From positions 1 through 37,692 of IMG/VR virus record IMGVR_UViG_2645727775_000019: a DNA stretch of 37,692 bases. One strand, 5' to 3'. The notes beneath the pieces were generated by a model. The model saw only the letters and a program-made list of their open reading frames with translations, made no database searches and was not told where the DNA came from. Position 1 is the stretch's first letter. Each line of letters begins with the position of its first letter. Below, one piece after another: positions 2,947 to 23,395 of this stretch. Made by a program: the position numbers and the translations under genes. This DNA is from a virus. Its lineage: Duplodnaviria; Heunggongvirae; Uroviricota; Caudoviricetes.

Positions 2947-3149
2947 TTCATGACTACCTGCGCAGTTTTTCATTGCTAATGAATGTTGCATACTTTACAA
3001 AAGTATACTATACAGTATTTGCGTTGTCATTGAATATAAATATACCTGCGGCAGAATCATTATTGAGGAGGCCATAGCAGTGGATAATTCATCCACTGCC
3101 TAGTGCATATATCAATCGCATGATTGTATTTTTGACAAACCTGATTTAG

Positions 3150-9447: not shown

Positions 9448-11355
9448 TTATCGTGGAAAACGAAAAGGGGAATACCCCACATCGTGCGTGATTTTCATCA
9501 GGGGATCGGCTTTGCCCGGTACATCAATTATCTTCATACCTGGCGGAGCATTCTCGAACGTGACTTTCAGCTCGCTGTGCTGTGTCATGGAAGAAGATGG
9601 ATTCAACAGCGGAACATTGGGTTTGTACTGGCTCAGGCTGGCCTGATACTGCTCGTACTCTTTACGATCAAAAAAAGGCGTCCAGTCTGAAGCCAGAAAC
9701 AGCCCTTTATTATCCAGCCAGTTAACCGTATCTTCAGGAACAACACTTTCCAGAGTATCTTTAACCGGCTCATACATCAGGGTTCCCAAAAAACCATATA
9801 CCCCGGCCTTCCCGATAAAGCCGCGGCCTTTCCCCATCAATCCCGTTTCTGCCGATACCTTCCCCAGCGTACGCATCTCTCTGGTCACTGCGGTAATGGA
9901 TTTGGTAACGTCAGCAACCCATTTGGTTGCCATAAACAGGGCAATCGCTTTCAGAACAGTTTCCCATCCCCCCATCACCTGCGCCGTTTCATCCACCACG
10001 TGCCAGACTTTTTTTATGACAGGGCCTACGGTTTCCCAGTTATCAATAATGAGGTAAGCGCCACCAACCAGAAGAGCAATCAGCCCCTTAGCAGGCGTCA
10101 TATTCATCACACCGCCGAGAACTTTCATGATTCTGGACAAAGAGCCTGCAGCGGCCCCCACTGTCAGTAAAGCCAGACCGATTTTAGCAATGGTCTTAAC
10201 GAGCTCCGGGTTTTCACGGACAAACGTTCTCACTTCCTCAAGGAGCGGTTTTACCGCTTCAAGACCATCATTAACCTCAGGAAGAAACGTTTCCCCCAGC
10301 GTGGAAGAAATGGCATCAAGTTGATTTTGCAGAAGTAAAAGCTGGTTTTCCGTCGTCGCTGCCCTCGAAGCATATTCCTTCTGCATCGAACTGCCATACT
10401 GCTGGGAATCCGCAACCCGCCTGAAGTTGGTACGCAACAAATCAAGGTTAGTCAGCAGAGGTGCTATCGCGCCCAGAGACTCTTTCCCGAACAGGGCATT
10501 CAGCACAGCTGCCTGTTTTTCTTTAGGCACTTTAGCCATCGCATCCAGTACAGACAGTATGGTGCCCCGGGCATCTTTCTGCATATCAGCAGCTAATTTC
10601 TTCGGATTGATCCGCAGAAAACGCAATGCCTGTTTCTGCGATTTTGTCGCAGAATTTCCCGCGGTCAGGGAAAGCATGAAGTTCTTGATCCCTGTGGCGG
10701 CAATTTCTGACTCCACGCCCATCCCGGCAATGGTTGCCCCCATTGCCGCGATTTCGCCGGAAGCCACACCTGCAACACCACCTAAAGGACCAATACGCGT
10801 AACAATATCGGAGATTTTCTTCGCGTTCGCCGGGCCGGTATTACCAAGGTAGTTGATTTTGTCAGCCAGCCCGGCCACTTCATCCTGCGTCATATTAAAC
10901 GCAGTACGCCACTGGGCCATCATCTGCCCGGACTCTTCAGCCGTGGTATCAAAGGCCACGCCCATCTTCACCGCATCAGTGGCAAACTGCATCAGTTCAT
11001 CACGTGCAATCCCGGCCTGACCGCCAGCCGCCACAATTTCCGCGATCCCGTCTGCAGACATGGGAAGCTCAGTAGACAAAGCGCGTACCTGCTCCGTCAT
11101 GGCCTTAAACGCATCCGGCGTATCCAGACCGTCCACCACTTTGCGGACATCAGCCATCTTCGATTCAAGGGTGATGGCTGATTTTACAGGGAGTGCCAGT
11201 GCCCCCATTATTGCAGTACCCGCCCCGGCAGCGCCCAGAGCAAGGCTGGAGACTTCTTTCTGAAACCCCTTAAGCTGACGCTGCATACCTTTAAGCGGGC
11301 CGGACAGCCTGTCAACAGCGGTGATGATGGCTTTCAGCTGAAAATTATCAGCCAT
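9448..11355 (-). CDS. Tail tape measure protein
   Basis: 635 aa, Ala/Gly-rich helical protein with hydrophobic segment; downstream of sheath-tube-chaperone. Confidence 0.85.
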   Translation of the reverse strand: MADNFQLKAIITAVDRLSGPLKGMQRQLKGFQKEVSSLALGAAGAGTAIMGALALPVKSAITLESKMADVRKVVDGLDTPDAFKAMTEQVRALSTELPMSADGIAEIVAAGGQAGIARDELMQFATDAVKMGVAFDTTAEESGQMMAQWRTAFNMTQDEVAGLADKINYLGNTGPANAKKISDIVTRIGPLGGVAGVASGEIAAMGATIAGMGVESEIAATGIKNFMLSLTAGNSATKSQKQALRFLRINPKKLAADMQKDARGTILSVLDAMAKVPKEKQAAVLNALFGKESLGAIAPLLTNLDLLRTNFRRVADSQQYGSSMQKEYASRAATTENQLLLLQNQLDAISSTLGETFLPEVNDGLEAVKPLLEEVRTFVRENPELVKTIAKIGLALLTVGAAAGSLSRIMKVLGGVMNMTPAKGLIALLVGGAYLIIDNWETVGPVIKKVWHVVDETAQVMGGWETVLKAIALFMATKWVADVTKSITAVTREMRTLGKVSAETGLMGKGRGFIGKAGVYGFLGTLMYEPVKDTLESVVPEDTVNWLDNKGLFLASDWTPFFDRKEYEQYQASLSQYKPNVPLLNPSSSMTQHSELKVTFENAPPGMKIIDVPGKADPLMKITHDVGYSPFRFPR

Positions 11356-11439
11356 GCTTCATCTCCTCATTTATACGGACAGCCTCTGCCTCCAGATCAG
11401 CAAAGTGGGAAATAGCCGTCCGGCGAAGTTCAAGGGGGT

Positions 11440-11763
11440 TTAATTTCCAGAACCACGCGACATTGTAGAATCGCTTCCGGAGCTCTCTTCCGTCTCCAAG
11501 CCGGTAAAAAAACGCATTACAATCATGCCTGCCTTGAAAATATCCAGCTTCGTCATCTGCGCTGCAGACGAGCGCGGGATCCCGGCCAGAAGCGGGATAT
11601 ATTTCAGCGCCACCTGACTGTCCATTTTCATACCACCATCAGGCGAAACAGAGAAAGGGAACCCCAGCGCCTCAATCTCGTCATACGTAGGCTCACGTAT
11701 TTCCAGCACATGCAGTGTTTCTTTGTGGGCGATGATCGGTTTTTTAAGTACAAGCTCAATCAC
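11440..11763 (-). CDS. Tail assembly chaperone (P2 gpE / Mu-like)
   Basis: 107 aa between tube and tape measure; T-run slippery site near 3' end (see findings). Confidence 0.6.
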   Translation of the reverse strand: MIELVLKKPIIAHKETLHVLEIREPTYDEIEALGFPFSVSPDGGMKMDSQVALKYIPLLAGIPRSSAAQMTKLDIFKAGMIVMRFFTGLETEESSGSDSTMSRGSGN

Positions 11764-12116
11764 TGGTAATCCCCTTCTTCACCGTGGAACTCAAGATCAA
11801 CCGTGCCTTCTTCGGCATTATGGTTCGCTTCGCCGTGCAGCCAGGCAGACGACAATACATAGACCTGACCGTTCGCCAGCTCGGCAGTGATGGTCATCTC
11901 ATCAGACGAGGTGATTTTGTTCACCGGAAAATTCTTCGGCACCTTGAAAGTCCCTTTGACATAAGGCGCACGGTGAGTTTCCTTGCGGTCCACTGAACCG
12001 TCCAGGCCGATGATGTCATCATTGACCGTCCTGTTCATGGGCACCTCAATGCCGCCGGTCAGCGATAGCTGTTGACCGTCAATTTTGAAATAACAGGTTC
12101 CCCCGATACGGGCCAT
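11760..12116 (-). CDS. Tail tube protein
   Basis: 118 aa immediately downstream of sheath gene with 4-nt overlap. Confidence 0.75.
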   Translation of the reverse strand: MARIGGTCYFKIDGQQLSLTGGIEVPMNRTVNDDIIGLDGSVDRKETHRAPYVKGTFKVPKNFPVNKITSSDEMTITAELANGQVYVLSSAWLHGEANHNAEEGTVDLEFHGEEGDYQ

Positions 12117-13609
12117 TATGCAGACTCCTCTGAATACTGAAGACGGAACTGGTTAACCACGGCAAAGACACGCAACTGGTTAACATAGTCAGGCGGGAAC
12201 AGCGTGTTCAGGCGGTTCGGATCGCTGGCATCACGCTCCACAACCAGGTACTGCTTAAACAGTTCGTAGTTTTCCACGATCCCCGCACGCTCAAGCTGAC
12301 GGTAGGTTGCCAGCAATTCCCCTTTGATCACCGCCGGTGTGACAATCGCCTGACCGGGACCAAAGCGGGTACCGTCGCTGGCAAGCTTGTGACGCCCGTA
12401 CTTACTGGTAATGACGGATTTCAGTTTGCGCAGCACATACGCGCTGGTATGCAGCGTCTCGCTGTCGAGGTAGCTGTTATCCGCAACACCGTAAGCGTTT
12501 TTCCTGTACGTGGTGACATCACGCTGAATGCGCAGCACCCCGCTTTCGACATACGCCGTTGCCACGCCATGAGACAGCAGGGTCTGTTGTTCGGTCATCG
12601 TGAACCGTTTCCCCTTCGGCGCAGGCAGCATACCCACCAGCTCACCGGTCTGCGTGGGACGTGCCGGATCGTTGCGAATAAACACCGCTGCGCGGGCGGT
12701 ACGGCTTGCCGCCAGCTCGTCGGCAGGCGTCTGGGTCTCTTTTTCGTATCCCGCCAGGGTAATGTGCTGCTGGTTAAACTGGTCACCTGCGGTCACCAGT
12801 TCTGACAGCGTGCCGATCTTTGCCGTATACACATGACCATACAGCTGACGCGCATAGCTCCAGCGACCGCTGGTATCGTTCATCTCGGTCACCAGCGTGT
12901 TAACGGAGGCCGTGTCGTTGAACGGCAGGCCGATATAATCAAACGGCTCATCCGCCATTGCAGCCACCGCGCCGGTGAGAACCGGAGCACCCGTTCCGGC
13001 GGTACCCGTCGCCACGGCAATCTGTACGCCCGCTGGCAGCACTTCGCCCCCACCAAAGCCGTAGTAATTGAGGCTGACAGGAATTTCATTCCCGCAAAGC
13101 CCCTTATGACGCGCGGTCAGTGTGACCACGCCTGCCGAAGATGAGGCAGTAAACGGCAGGGTCGGAACGGCATTGATGGCATCCTGGATACTGCTGGCAA
13201 TCGTCGCAACGTTATCGCCGTTGGTCACCGGTGCCTGCACGCGGGTACGTCCCACATAAACATTCACCGTGCCGCTTTCGGTTGCTTCCCCGGTCACCGT
13301 CAGCGTAACCGTTGCCGCCGCGCCTGTGGCTTCCGGAACGGCAATCACATACAGCTCACCAAACGGGTCGGTCTGGCGATAAGCCTCGACCATACGCGCC
13401 AGCTGACTTCCCGCACCACAAATCTGGCGTGCATAGTCTGCCGATGGCATCAGCACCAGACTGTTGGCAACAATCTCTGCACCGTTATTGGCATGACCAA
13501 TCAGCAGCGATGCTCCGCTGTCCTGTGCAGTATTCGCCGCCGAGTTATCCATTTCCGCATAAAAAATCGGAACCAGCGTATTTGACGGAATGGTGTTAAA
13601 GCTCGTCAT
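12116..13609 (-). CDS. Contractile tail sheath protein (Mu gpL-like)
   Basis: 497 aa; sheath family resemblance; AGGTG ribosome binding site upstream. Confidence 0.9.
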   Translation of the reverse strand: MTSFNTIPSNTLVPIFYAEMDNSAANTAQDSGASLLIGHANNGAEIVANSLVLMPSADYARQICGAGSQLARMVEAYRQTDPFGELYVIAVPEATGAAATVTLTVTGEATESGTVNVYVGRTRVQAPVTNGDNVATIASSIQDAINAVPTLPFTASSSAGVVTLTARHKGLCGNEIPVSLNYYGFGGGEVLPAGVQIAVATGTAGTGAPVLTGAVAAMADEPFDYIGLPFNDTASVNTLVTEMNDTSGRWSYARQLYGHVYTAKIGTLSELVTAGDQFNQQHITLAGYEKETQTPADELAASRTARAAVFIRNDPARPTQTGELVGMLPAPKGKRFTMTEQQTLLSHGVATAYVESGVLRIQRDVTTYRKNAYGVADNSYLDSETLHTSAYVLRKLKSVITSKYGRHKLASDGTRFGPGQAIVTPAVIKGELLATYRQLERAGIVENYELFKQYLVVERDASDPNRLNTLFPPDYVNQLRVFAVVNQFRLQYSEESA

Positions 13610-22104: not shown

Positions 22105-22564
22105 TAACCACCCCGCCAGCTTCTTTGAATTTGGCAATCAGACTATCGATCTTGTGTTCATACTGACCGTAGCCAGCACCGGGCAATGAAGCCCAAATAT
22201 TGCTGCAACGATCAATAGCCTGACGAATATCCCCCCGATCAATCAGCGGCAGCGCGCCGCGTTCTTTAATCTGCTGTAACGCCACCGCATCCTGGCTTTT
22301 CGGGGAGAAATCTTTCAGTCCAAGCTGTTTACGGTAGGCGTCCCACCATTTCGACAGCAGTTGATAACGCCCGGCGGCGGTGGATTTCAGTTTCGGGTTA
22401 AGCGTAACCAGCTTACGTGGATGATCGGAGTAATCAGTAAGCAGTTCGCCACCAACGATAACGTCATAACCATGATTTCTGGTCTTCTGCCATCCGTTAT
22501 CAGTTCCTTCTGACCACGCCAGCATATCGAGGAAGGCTTTACGCTGAGGATTAAGGTTTTGCAT
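22088..22564 (-). CDS. Endolysin, lambda R-like lytic transglycosylase
   Basis: 158 aa; QRKAFLDMLAWSEGTDNG...RYQLL...SQDAVALQQIKERGAL closely matches lambda R as recalled. Confidence 0.9.
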   Translation of the reverse strand: MQNLNPQRKAFLDMLAWSEGTDNGWQKTRNHGYDVIVGGELLTDYSDHPRKLVTLNPKLKSTAAGRYQLLSKWWDAYRKQLGLKDFSPKSQDAVALQQIKERGALPLIDRGDIRQAIDRCSNIWASLPGAGYGQYEHKIDSLIAKFKEAGGVVNETSL

Positions 22565-22868
22565 TTTTCACCCCTGTCAGTCGTTCCCAGAAGTAAGTCA
22601 GCGCAACTGAACCCATTGCACCGCTGATCCCTGCTGTGGCGAGAATCATGTAAATGCTAAATCCGCTTTCGATACTTATCAGGCCACCAATAACACCGGT
22701 AAAACCCGATACCACTATCTGAGCCAGAGCATTAATCCAGCTCCATGTTGCTTTGCTCTGCTTCACATCAATCAGGTAACGGACAAGCCCGCCCCAGCAC
22801 GCGAAGATCAGCAGAACGAGCCAGGACATCCCGGCAATGCTCTCTTTTTCGTGCATATGAATAGCCAT
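22551..22868 (-). CDS. Holin (non-lambda-S type) with possible dual-start motif
   Basis: 105 aa from MAIHMHEK; three hydrophobic segments; immediately upstream of endolysin. Confidence 0.7.
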   Translation of the reverse strand: MAIHMHEKESIAGMSWLVLLIFACWGGLVRYLIDVKQSKATWSWINALAQIVVSGFTGVIGGLISIESGFSIYMILATAGISGAMGSVALTYFWERLTGVKNAKP

Positions 22869-22897
22869 GATTTTGCCGCCGACGGATGATCGGGACT

Positions 22898-23395
22898 CTA
22901 AATGATAGGGAACAGACTCACGGGGTAATTTAACGACAAAGCACGGAGTTGAAGATCCCCACAAGCCTGGAATAAAAAAGCCAGCGACAGGCTGGCAATG
23001 TGAGGGTAACGCAAAGTGCTTAGAAACAAAAAAAGGCCGCCATCGGCGACCTTCGAGGTATCTAGCGTGCTGGATACTTTCAGCTTCGCCTTCAATTCAG
23101 CGTTGATTTCTTTCAGGCGATCAACATCGTTTTTAAGTTTTTCAATGTCTTGCCCTTTATTATCAAGGTCGCGCTGAAGACCTTTAATAATTTCTGTTTG
23201 GGCCGCCTGTACTTCTCGTGTCGTCTGGAGAGACTTATCAATATCATCAACTTGGTTAATCAAGCGTGTACCGAAAAAGCCTACAACTAACATAGTTATC
23301 CCAACCATAAAGTTGAGAACCCAGACTTTTGTTCCGGAAGCAGTGTTTGGAGTTTCGTCGATAAAGTGCACCTTATGCCAGTTAAAGTTACCCAA
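22898..23395 (-). CDS. Hypothetical membrane-anchored coiled-coil protein (cargo gene Y)
   Basis: TM segment VWVLNFMVGITMLVVGFFGT then heptad-like coiled coil; ORF-track start is TTG; 3' portion reads through the terminator hairpins so the true extent is uncertain. Confidence 0.45.
   Translation of the reverse strand: MGNFNWHKVHFIDETPNTASGTKVWVLNFMVGITMLVVGFFGTRLINQVDDIDKSLQTTREVQAAQTEIIKGLQRDLDNKGQDIEKLKNDVDRLKEINAELKAKLKVSSTLDTSKVADGGLFLFLSTLRYPHIASLSLAFLFQACGDLQLRALSLNYPVSLFPII
22971..23051 (-). terminator. Two tandem intrinsic terminator-like hairpins upstream of the holin
   Basis: Minus strand: GGTCGCCGATGGCGGCC then TTTTTTTG, and GCCAGCCTGTCGCTGGC then TTTTTTATT. Confidence 0.6.

Follow-up and report, generated by a model that had tools for sequence, protein, structure and literature searches.

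Tail genes and a T-run near the end of the chaperone gene

We analysed a stretch of 37,692 nucleotides of phage DNA, which we will call the window. It is a prophage of the SfIV/SfV type whose contractile tail module resembles that of Mu. Over 25 kb, it is a mosaic of the SfV/SfIV type. Around the site discussed here, the sequence shares 99.5% identity with Shigella phage SfIV and about 74-77% with phiP27 and ST64B, and a prophage in E. coli ECCHD184 contains a 501-nt stretch that is 100% identical to the window. The tail genes lie on the minus strand in the order sheath, tube, chaperone, an 84-nt "gap", and tape measure, which gives the chaperone gene the position of the lambda G/GT class. Past the tape measure gene are baseplate genes that resemble N and P of Mu. 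The features that we will refer to are:

13609..12116, minus strand: tail sheath (from the ORF list and the annotated order)
11760..12116, minus strand: tail tube, 118 aa (annotated as "tail tube protein" in SfIV, at 99.5% identity, and by PGAP in E. coli)
11440..11763, minus strand: zero-frame tail assembly chaperone (G/E-like), 107 aa, with a GTG start and a TAA stop at 11442..11440 (ORF and PF10109)
11506..11512, minus strand: putative slippery heptamer T_TTT_TTT, at codons 85-86 (Phe-Phe) after CGT (sequence and phase)
11443..11505, minus strand: overlap zone, the 21 zero-frame codons past the slip site (TGLETEESSGSDSTMSRGSGN, rich in Ser and acidic residues; translation)
11348..11506, minus strand: −1 extension (T/E′-like), 52 codons from 11506 to 11351 and then TGA at 11350..11348 (translation)
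9448..11355, minus strand: tape measure protein, 635 aa, with its ATG at 11355..11353 (ORF; annotated in SfIV and in E. coli)
11430..11432, minus strand: the TGA that a sequence-only reading had taken as the end of the extension; it lies in the +1 frame (frame arithmetic and three-frame translation)

Neighboring genes are tightly packed. The TGA of the tube gene overlaps the GTG start of the chaperone gene (GTGA). The ATG of the tape measure gene overlaps the stop codon of the extension (ATGGCTGA), and the Shine-Dalgarno sequence of the tape measure gene, GAGGAG, lies inside the last codons of the extension.

The 107-aa chaperone matches the Pfam family PF10109 (Phage_TAC_7) with 32.1 bits (the cut-off is 25). 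The match covers residues 5-86 and ends exactly at the slip site. PF10109 is described as "tail assembly chaperone proteins E, or 41 or 14" and includes E of P2 and gp41 of Mu. The chaperone also matches phrog_166 from PHROGs ("tail protein", E = 1.9e-25). No model in NCBIfam matches the 107-aa protein or the 138-aa fusion that we describe below.

The sequence-only reading had proposed that ribosomes shift into the −1 frame at a run of seven T's about 20 codons before the stop of the chaperone gene. The run is where it was said to be: A7 on the plus strand (11506-11512) is a T7 on the minus strand, within the chaperone ORF and 21 codons before its TAA. The zero-frame codons here are CGT (11514-11512), TTT, TTT (11508-11506), and ACC, which is the X_XXY_YYZ phase for tandem −1 slippage. 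No second in-phase heptamer occurs along the open stretch of the −1 frame.

The same reading had the −1 frame open for about 25 codons, to the TGA at 11430-11432. But this TGA (11432..11430) begins 10 nt past the zero-frame TAA and is therefore in the +1 frame, whose peptide is FLPAWRRKRAPEAILQCRVVLEIKPP followed by the stop. The −1 frame itself is translated as YRLGDGRELRKRFYNVAWFWKLNPLELRRTAISHFADLEAEAVRINEEMKHG and runs for 52 codons to the TGA at 11350..11348. By translation, the bases of the overlap zone (11443..11505) are the ones that shifted ribosomes would read in this frame as well. What had been described as a short extension is thus 52 aa long, as compared to 57 aa for E′ of P2. 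The predicted fusion has 86 + 52 = 138 aa, and the peptide across the junction would be …MIVMRFFYRLGDGR…. Other peptides that are predicted from the −1 frame include FYNVAWFWK, LNPLELR, and TAISHFADLEAEAVR.

The −1 frame is open for 96 codons in all (11638..11351) and overlaps the end of the chaperone ORF. We found no ATG, GTG, or TTG within these 96 codons, apart from one at 4 codons from the stop. As there is no usable start codon, we rejected the idea that translation of the −1 ORF begins independently. We also ruled out that the extension is the 5' part of the tape measure gene, whose ATG is in a different frame.

How much of this would be expected by chance? The window contains 16 runs of A or T that are at least seven long. 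Given the density of stop codons in the −1 frames of the neighboring genes (6.3%), the chance that 52 codons would be open is about 0.03. Because A/T runs are common and the chance of an open frame is not negligible, the single sequence is only suggestive. The significance of the site comes from its conservation and from the pattern of substitutions.

Conservation of the heptamer and selection on the extension

Prophages related to the window usually have both the heptamer and the extension. In phiP27, ST64B, and prophages from S. flexneri, Erwinia, and Pantoea, T_TTT_TTT is found at the same Phe-Phe codons, it is followed by a −1 ORF of 52-53 codons, and the stop of this ORF overlaps the start of the tape measure gene. 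SfV, SfII, Pantoea phage AH07, and Edwardsiella phage EPP-1, whose chaperones are 42-49% identical, have T_TTT_TTC and a −1 ORF of 53 codons. In these four phages, the zero frame stops just 3 codons past the heptamer.

To reach more distant relatives, we found their loci by scanning with single proteins. The arrangement is retained at 33-42% identity of the chaperone in Yersinia phage YeP1 (T_TTT_TTT), Pseudomonas phage PG1 (T_TTT_TTG), and DVM-2008 and Burkholderia phage BgVeeders33 (both T_TTT_TTC). Overall, about 12 distinct lineages, down to 33% identity of the chaperone, have a −1 ORF of 52-64 codons that ends in or beside the start of the tape measure gene. The sequence-only reading had suggested a comparison with the slippery sites of related phages as a check. 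This comparison came out in favor of the site, as most relatives keep both the heptamer and the extension. The sole exception among the relatives that we examined is Paraburkholderia phage IPK, an unverified record in which the T-run is absent.

Within two larger sets of loci, the pattern does not vary. T7 is present in all 73 of the scorable SfIV-like loci from IMG/VR, and the extension has either 50 or 52 codons (52 in 72 of them). In the 74 full-length loci from Pseudomonas in IMG/VR, the codons are AGT TTT TTC in every case, and the extension has 54 codons.

The codon before the Phe pair varies: it may be CGT, AAT, GGT, AGT, or CCT, which encode Arg, Asn, Gly, Ser, and Pro. Yet wherever a lineage retains the T-run, the wobble base of this codon is T. 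Since the wobble T is fixed while the codon varies, there is a constraint at synonymous sites, on the heptamer itself.

The extension can be aligned in all of the lineages. Four positions are invariant (A17, P24, A42, and R44), and the motif shared by all is (Y/F)..A.(F/Y)W.(I/V/L/M)(N/D)P, with Y..A.FW.(I/V/L)(N/D)P ... A.RI as a stricter form. In the relatives, conservation at the protein level begins near the heptamer.

The substitutions beyond the chaperone stop are those of a coding sequence. Between the window and phiP27, there are 2, 1, and 16 differences at codon positions 1, 2, and 3 of the −1 frame (binomial p = 7e-6). By the method of Nei and Gojobori (NG86), this part of the extension has dN of 0.08 and dS of 1.52, and the other two frames contain stops. 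For the body of the chaperone, the corresponding values are dN of 0.13 and dS of 0.82. Among closer relatives, dN/dS for the extension is about 0.05-0.13, which is as low as for the chaperone body. The −1 ORF is under strong purifying selection. For the last six or so codons of the extension, the nucleotide constraint is confounded, because the Shine-Dalgarno sequence of the tape measure gene sits within them.

In the 21-codon overlap zone, both frames could be compared. Between the window and phiP27, the −1 frame has dN of 0.13 and dS of 0.86, while the zero frame has dN of 0.31 and dS of 0.12. Among the closer relatives, it is the −1 frame that is the more constrained one in this zone. This pattern fits a zero-frame tail that is rich in Ser and acidic residues, is poorly constrained, and is absent from the SfV clade. 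In more distant pairs from Erwinia and Pantoea, the two frames are alike in their constraint within the overlap zone.

Probable ribosomal frameshifting and its alternatives

The sequence-only reading compared the site to G/GT of lambda and E/E′ of P2, and in this it was on target: the gene order, the match to PF10109, the phase of the heptamer, its conservation, the missing start codon of the −1 ORF, and the purifying selection all agree with a programmed −1 frameshift of that kind. We consider it likely that the chaperone gene undergoes programmed −1 ribosomal frameshifting at the T7. With UUU UUU in the P and A sites, both Phe tRNAs would slip back by one base and pair again on U_UUU_UUU (11512..11506). 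The ribosomes that shift, a minority, would then read 52 codons in the −1 frame, to the UGA at 11350..11348, and would make the 138-aa fusion. Its N-terminal 86 residues would be the chaperone domain, and its C-terminal 52 residues would be a T/E′-like domain. The 107-aa protein would come from the majority, which do not leave the zero frame. By analogy to lambda and to E/E+E′ of P2, we predict that the two products act at a fixed ratio while the tail is assembled and that virions contain neither. The overlap between the stop of the extension and the start of the tape measure gene would fit with translational coupling within one operon. We infer the ribosomal nature of the shift, its efficiency, and the roles of both proteins.

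We looked for the elements that stimulate −1 frameshifting in other bacterial systems. The minimum free energy folds of the 66 and 113 nt past the heptamer are no more stable than those of shuffled sequences (z = +0.27 and −0.25), and the fold of the upstream sequence is also like that of shuffles (z = −0.17). A consensus fold of seven relatives, from RNAalifold, has −2.8 kcal/mol with a positive covariation term, so there is no support from covariation. By eye, the 30 nt on the 5' side of the heptamer have no Shine-Dalgarno-like motif, the distance of 6-17 nt included. Thus the site has neither the Shine-Dalgarno-like element nor the hairpin or pseudoknot of the dnaX and IS3 types, as far as these searches can tell.

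What efficiency might be expected of such a heptamer? With reporters in E. coli, Sharma et al. 2014 measured 0.33% frameshifting for U_UUU_UUU without a stimulator and 10.2% with the pseudoknot from IS3; for U_UUU_UUC, the corresponding values are 0.12% and 7.6% (PMC4066793, Table S3). In the same study, the z scores for occurrence in E. coli genes, in the X_XXZ_ZZN phase, are −15.6 for U_UUU_UUU and −1.10 for U_UUU_UUC (PMC4066793). Both heptamers have thus been measured to shift by −1 in E. coli, whose genes strongly avoid them (PMC4066793). The chaperone gene discussed here is not among the five prophage clusters of that study (PMC4066793). If the bare heptamer gives 0.33%, then a useful efficiency would imply either a stimulator that we do not recognize, such as the nascent peptide or the codon context, or else transcriptional slippage.

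Transcriptional slippage, either alone or alongside ribosomal slippage, would have RNA polymerase add a U at the T7. Translation of the resulting mRNA with U8 would give the same 138-aa fusion (R-F-F-Y-R-L...). Because the protein would be identical, ribosomal and transcriptional slippage are indistinguishable in silico. The site is, after all, a homopolymer of seven T's, the efficiency of the bare heptamer on the ribosome is low, and we found no ribosomal stimulator. Also, E. coli genes contain fewer UUUUUUU than expected in each of the three phases, and transcriptional slippage or indels are a possible reason for this avoidance (PMC4066793). The database protein P0001, with the junction ...MRFYRL..., reads as if it came from a run of five T's. 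Database proteins with an altered length of the T-run imply that the run is prone to indels at some level, though possibly only in sequencing.

On the other hand, a run of six T's followed by C or G is in general a much poorer template for slippage by the polymerase, yet it is still a valid X_XXY_YYZ heptamer. This is what most lineages have, including the SfV, Pseudomonas, and Burkholderia clades and P2, always in phase, which makes transcriptional slippage less likely. The site of P2 is on record as a translational −1 frameshift (reviewed in PMC5009743). Nor is there a consistent terminator-like hairpin before the run: a pattern scan of the site found none, and the 45-nt folds that end in the T-run, from 10 phages, have z scores from −1.65 to +1.15 and no common stem. 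We therefore view transcriptional slippage as rather improbable. It is still more plausible than the idea that there is no recoding at all, with the T-run being incidental and the −1 ORF being either an independent small gene or an unexpressed remnant. There are some hints in this direction: the record for vB_EcoM-689R6 annotates a separate 60-aa "hypothetical protein" in the gap, PHROGs has a family of such small ORFs (phrog_32181, which the extension matches with E = 4e-6), and a frameshift is annotated in none of the records that we inspected (nine GenBank or RefSeq phage records and one PGAP record from E. coli). However, a small gene would have to start within a frame that has no start codon until 4 codons before its end, dN/dS of about 0.05-0.13 is not expected of an unexpressed remnant, protein conservation begins near the heptamer, and the heptamer and its wobble T are kept in the T-run lineages. 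We think that an absence of recoding is very unlikely.

Finally, ribosomes could enter the frame that leads to the TGA at 11430-11432 and add about 25 residues, as the sequence-only reading had it. This would require a shift of +1 or −2, or the loss of one U. Past the T-run of the window, the +1 frame does indeed stay open for 26 codons (FLPAWRRK…KPP and then a stop). There is also a precedent within the same Pfam family: for the chaperone of Mu, a −2 shift has been reported (Xu et al. 2004, cited by PMC2628397), and the +1/−2 frame of Mu is open for 55 codons. Among the relatives of the window, though, the open length of the +1 frame ranges from 10 to 56 codons and its peptide is not conserved. 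It has stops beyond the stop of the G-like gene, and its apparent dN/dS is above 1 in most pairs. When the +1 peptide of the window was compared to the profile of the extension, 3425 of 5000 shuffles scored as well or better. Given the variable length and the stops in relatives, this reading is refuted as a conserved feature, and as an account of the window we find it scarcely credible. Ribosomal −1 frameshifting at the T7 is the explanation that we carry forward.

Comparison with P2, lambda, and Mu, and annotation of the site

In P2, E/E+E′ is a programmed −1 frameshift that was reportedly described by Christie et al. in 2002. The G/GT frameshift of lambda was reportedly worked out by Levin, Hendrix and Casjens in 1993 and by Xu, Hendrix and Duda in 2004, 2013, and 2014.

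P2 is the closest parallel. Its RefSeq record (NC_001895) annotates E+E′ as a −1 frameshift, with T_TTT_TTG at codon 84 and an extension of 57 aa. PF10109 covers residues 7-85 of E, PF06528 covers the extension, and the stop of the extension overlaps the start of T (ATGAGTAA). In both P2 and the window, then, the PF10109 domain ends at the slip site, the slip site is a T_TTT_TTN heptamer (at codon 84 in P2 and codon 85 in the window), the extensions are of similar size, and their stops overlap the start of the tape measure gene (ATGAGTAA in P2 and ATGGCTGA in the window). An evident RNA structure that would stimulate the shift is lacking from both (PMC3091744 for P2 and its relatives). But the last base of the heptamer is G in P2 and T in the window, the zero-frame tail has 6 codons in P2 instead of 21, and the sheath and tube genes of the window are Mu-like, not P2-like. 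Also, the extension of P2 matches PF06528, while the extension of the window falls below a match: when we compared the extensions of the window and of five relatives to Pfam, no family matched at E up to 1-5, so PF06528 was not found in any of them.

In lambda, the gene with the slip site has the same position as in the window, with the major tail or tube gene on one side and the tape measure gene on the other. As is predicted for the window, two nested products share one start, with a low-level −1 shift near the 3′ end. G of lambda lines the tape measure protein in many copies, and the rare GT recruits the tube subunit via its T domain (PMC5009743). The ratio of G to GT is critical, neither protein is in the virion, and the frameshift does not require a downstream structure (PMC5009743). 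Unlike the window, lambda slips on G_GGA_AAG and has a non-contractile tail, and its G and T are from different sequence families. We detected no sequence similarity of the genes in the window to lambda.

Mu has a chaperone in the same Pfam family (gp41) and a homologous tail module (sheath L and tube M). But Mu has no T-run and no open −1 frame; instead, its +1/−2 frame runs for 55 codons after a G-run (GGGGGCG). Conversely, the window has a putative −1 shift at a T-run and has no G-run, and a stop ends its +1/−2 frame after 26 codons, so the site is not of the Mu type. The open frame of Mu agrees with PMC2628397, which credits Xu et al. 2004 with a −2 shift for Mu and −1 shifts elsewhere.

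To ask if the extensions are related, we compared the extension profile to those of P2 and Mu with hhalign. The match to E′ of P2 has E = 1.7e-3 and a probability of 15%, and 26 of 5000 shuffles scored as well or better. The match to the −2-frame extension of Mu has E = 4e-4, and none of 5000 shuffles did as well. For the controls, the number of shuffles that were as good or better was 458 of 5000 for the −1 frame of Mu, besides the 3425 of 5000 for the +1 frame of the window. Since the Mu extension beats all 5000 shuffles, its T-like domain is probably homologous to the SfV-type extension. More broadly, the profile comparisons suggest that the T-like domains of SfV-type phages, P2, and Mu are probably, if not demonstrably, homologous. 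We can tentatively imagine, although the odds are against it, that the T-like domain of contractile tails is a single homologous module and that lineages differ in how they recode to reach it, with P2 and the group of SfV, SfIV, and phiP27 shifting by −1 on T_TTT_TTN and Mu shifting by −2 on a G-run. In that case, the direction of frameshifting would have switched during evolution while the domain was retained, and the SfIV-type site would be efficient enough without a recognizable RNA stimulator.

The site is a genuine and ordinary case of the known class of frameshifts in tail chaperones. The phenomenon is in the textbooks; what is missing is the annotation. In the records that we inspected (SfIV, SfV, SfII, phiP27, ST64B, newer phages, and E. 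coli from PGAP), the locus has a single short gene for a "tail protein" or "phage tail assembly protein", and the gap of 84-141 nt behind it is left without explanation. The site is not mentioned in the SfIV genome paper or in the other literature that we searched, which did not extend to the tables of Xu 2004 and Christie 2002.

Protein databases contain almost no trace of the 138-aa product, and searches of them say little about function. When we used phmmer to compare the 52-aa extension to 1.84 billion representative proteins, we found 7 matches, mostly fragments or mis-assemblies, and none of them was informative about function. A sequence search of the PDB with the fusion gave only noise (E of at least 0.26). 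We also ran AlphaFold2 on P0001, which is a natural fusion, with an alignment of 17 rows; the mean pLDDT was 45 and the model was unusable.

The phiP27-like copy that is widespread in S. flexneri has a one-base insertion (TCCGGAAAC becomes TCCGGGAAAC) 27 nt past the T7. This insertion joins the zero frame to the −1 frame, so that standard translation makes only a 142-aa GT-like protein.

The main value of this finding is for annotation, and the understanding of the phenomenon is unchanged. Among 5426 complete genomes of E. coli, 1072 contain sequence that is similar to part of this gene pair, and 211 do so with at least 80% coverage. The site adds a T_TTT_TTT heptamer that lacks a stimulator to those that are available for studying how context affects −1 frameshifting. 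It also provides a criterion for identifying defective prophages, such as the widespread copy in S. flexneri with the fused gene. For the biology of these phages, the site completes the set of tail assembly genes of a common family of serotype-converting and Stx-associated prophages, and this may extend to elements from Pseudomonas with related tail genes (DVM-2008-like loci).

Departures from the slip site among related loci

The sequence AGT TTT TTC and a 54-codon -1 ORF are kept in 74/74 of the full-length Pseudomonas DVM-2008-like loci from IMG/VR (within L107-L186), so the slip site is also fixed in these Pseudomonas elements with SfV-like tail genes. The homologue from Paraburkholderia phage IPK (L098; PV588664.1, an unverified record, 695-1206) encodes the Phe-Phe pair as TTC TTC and lacks the T-run. 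There, the -1 frame is open from just 3 codons upstream of the chaperone stop, and then forms a 71-codon ORF bearing the conserved FW..P motif. IPK may use a different slip site, around GAG GGC GCG TAA, or the unverified record may contain an error.

In many genomes of S. flexneri, a single nucleotide has been inserted into a phiP27-like copy of the chaperone gene (TCCGGAAAC to TCCGGGAAAC); we compared this form with loci L007 and L002:

LR861788.1 1805215-1808643, gene 1501-1929: example of the copy with the inserted base (L104-L106)

The insertion lies 27 nt 3′ of the slippery heptamer (T7), which is itself intact. With the extra base, the zero frame runs on into the -1 frame, so that a 142-aa GT-like protein is all that standard translation makes, and the free chaperone is lost. 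In the collection, 754 blocks list the protein of this copy (P0007). The insertion is probably a sign of a defective prophage.

Changed T-run lengths, along with other indels in the chaperone gene, are implied by the junction sequences of four assembly-derived database proteins (P0001, P0009, P0015, and P0021), of which several come from the Logan collection. Reading the protein sequence of P0001, we infer that its T-run would be T5. Judging from these sequences, the homopolymer is apparently prone to errors or indels, in sequencing or in nature.

The two C-termini

11440-11505, minus strand: zero-frame tail TGLETEESSGSDSTMSRGSGN, Ser/acid-rich, 3′ of the slip site
11351-11506: extension compared with Mu

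Between the window and phiP27, the zero-frame tail shows an apparent dN > dS, and in the SfV clade only 3 zero-frame codons follow the slip site. From sequence comparison, the C-terminus of the short chaperone product looks dispensable.

Against a profile of SfV-type -1 extensions, the -2-frame extension of Mu (L102; NC_000929, locus 2950-3117) outscored 5000/5000 shuffles, and E′ of P2 outscored 4974 of 5000. Mu and the window appear to share the T-like domain, but the direction of the frameshift is not the same. Despite this difference, the T-like domains seem to be homologous.

Heptamers and overlaps elsewhere in the window

22898-23395, minus strand: 165-aa ORF of the lysis region, with in-phase heptamers at 23033 and 22979
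11760-11763, minus strand: GTGA, overlap of tube stop and chaperone start
within 11348-11372, minus strand: ATGGCTGA, overlap of tape-measure start and extension stop

Two heptamers, T_TTT_TTG and T_TTT_TTA, are in phase in the lysis-region ORF, and a long -1 ORF follows each of them. Since this -1 ORF extends an overlapping holin-like ORF (22551..22964) upstream, the case looks like an incidental overlap and not like recoding.

The GAGGAG Shine-Dalgarno sequence of the tape-measure gene lies within the final codons of the -1 extension (11348-11372, minus strand). Together with the overlaps on both sides, this internal Shine-Dalgarno suggests translational coupling along the operon.
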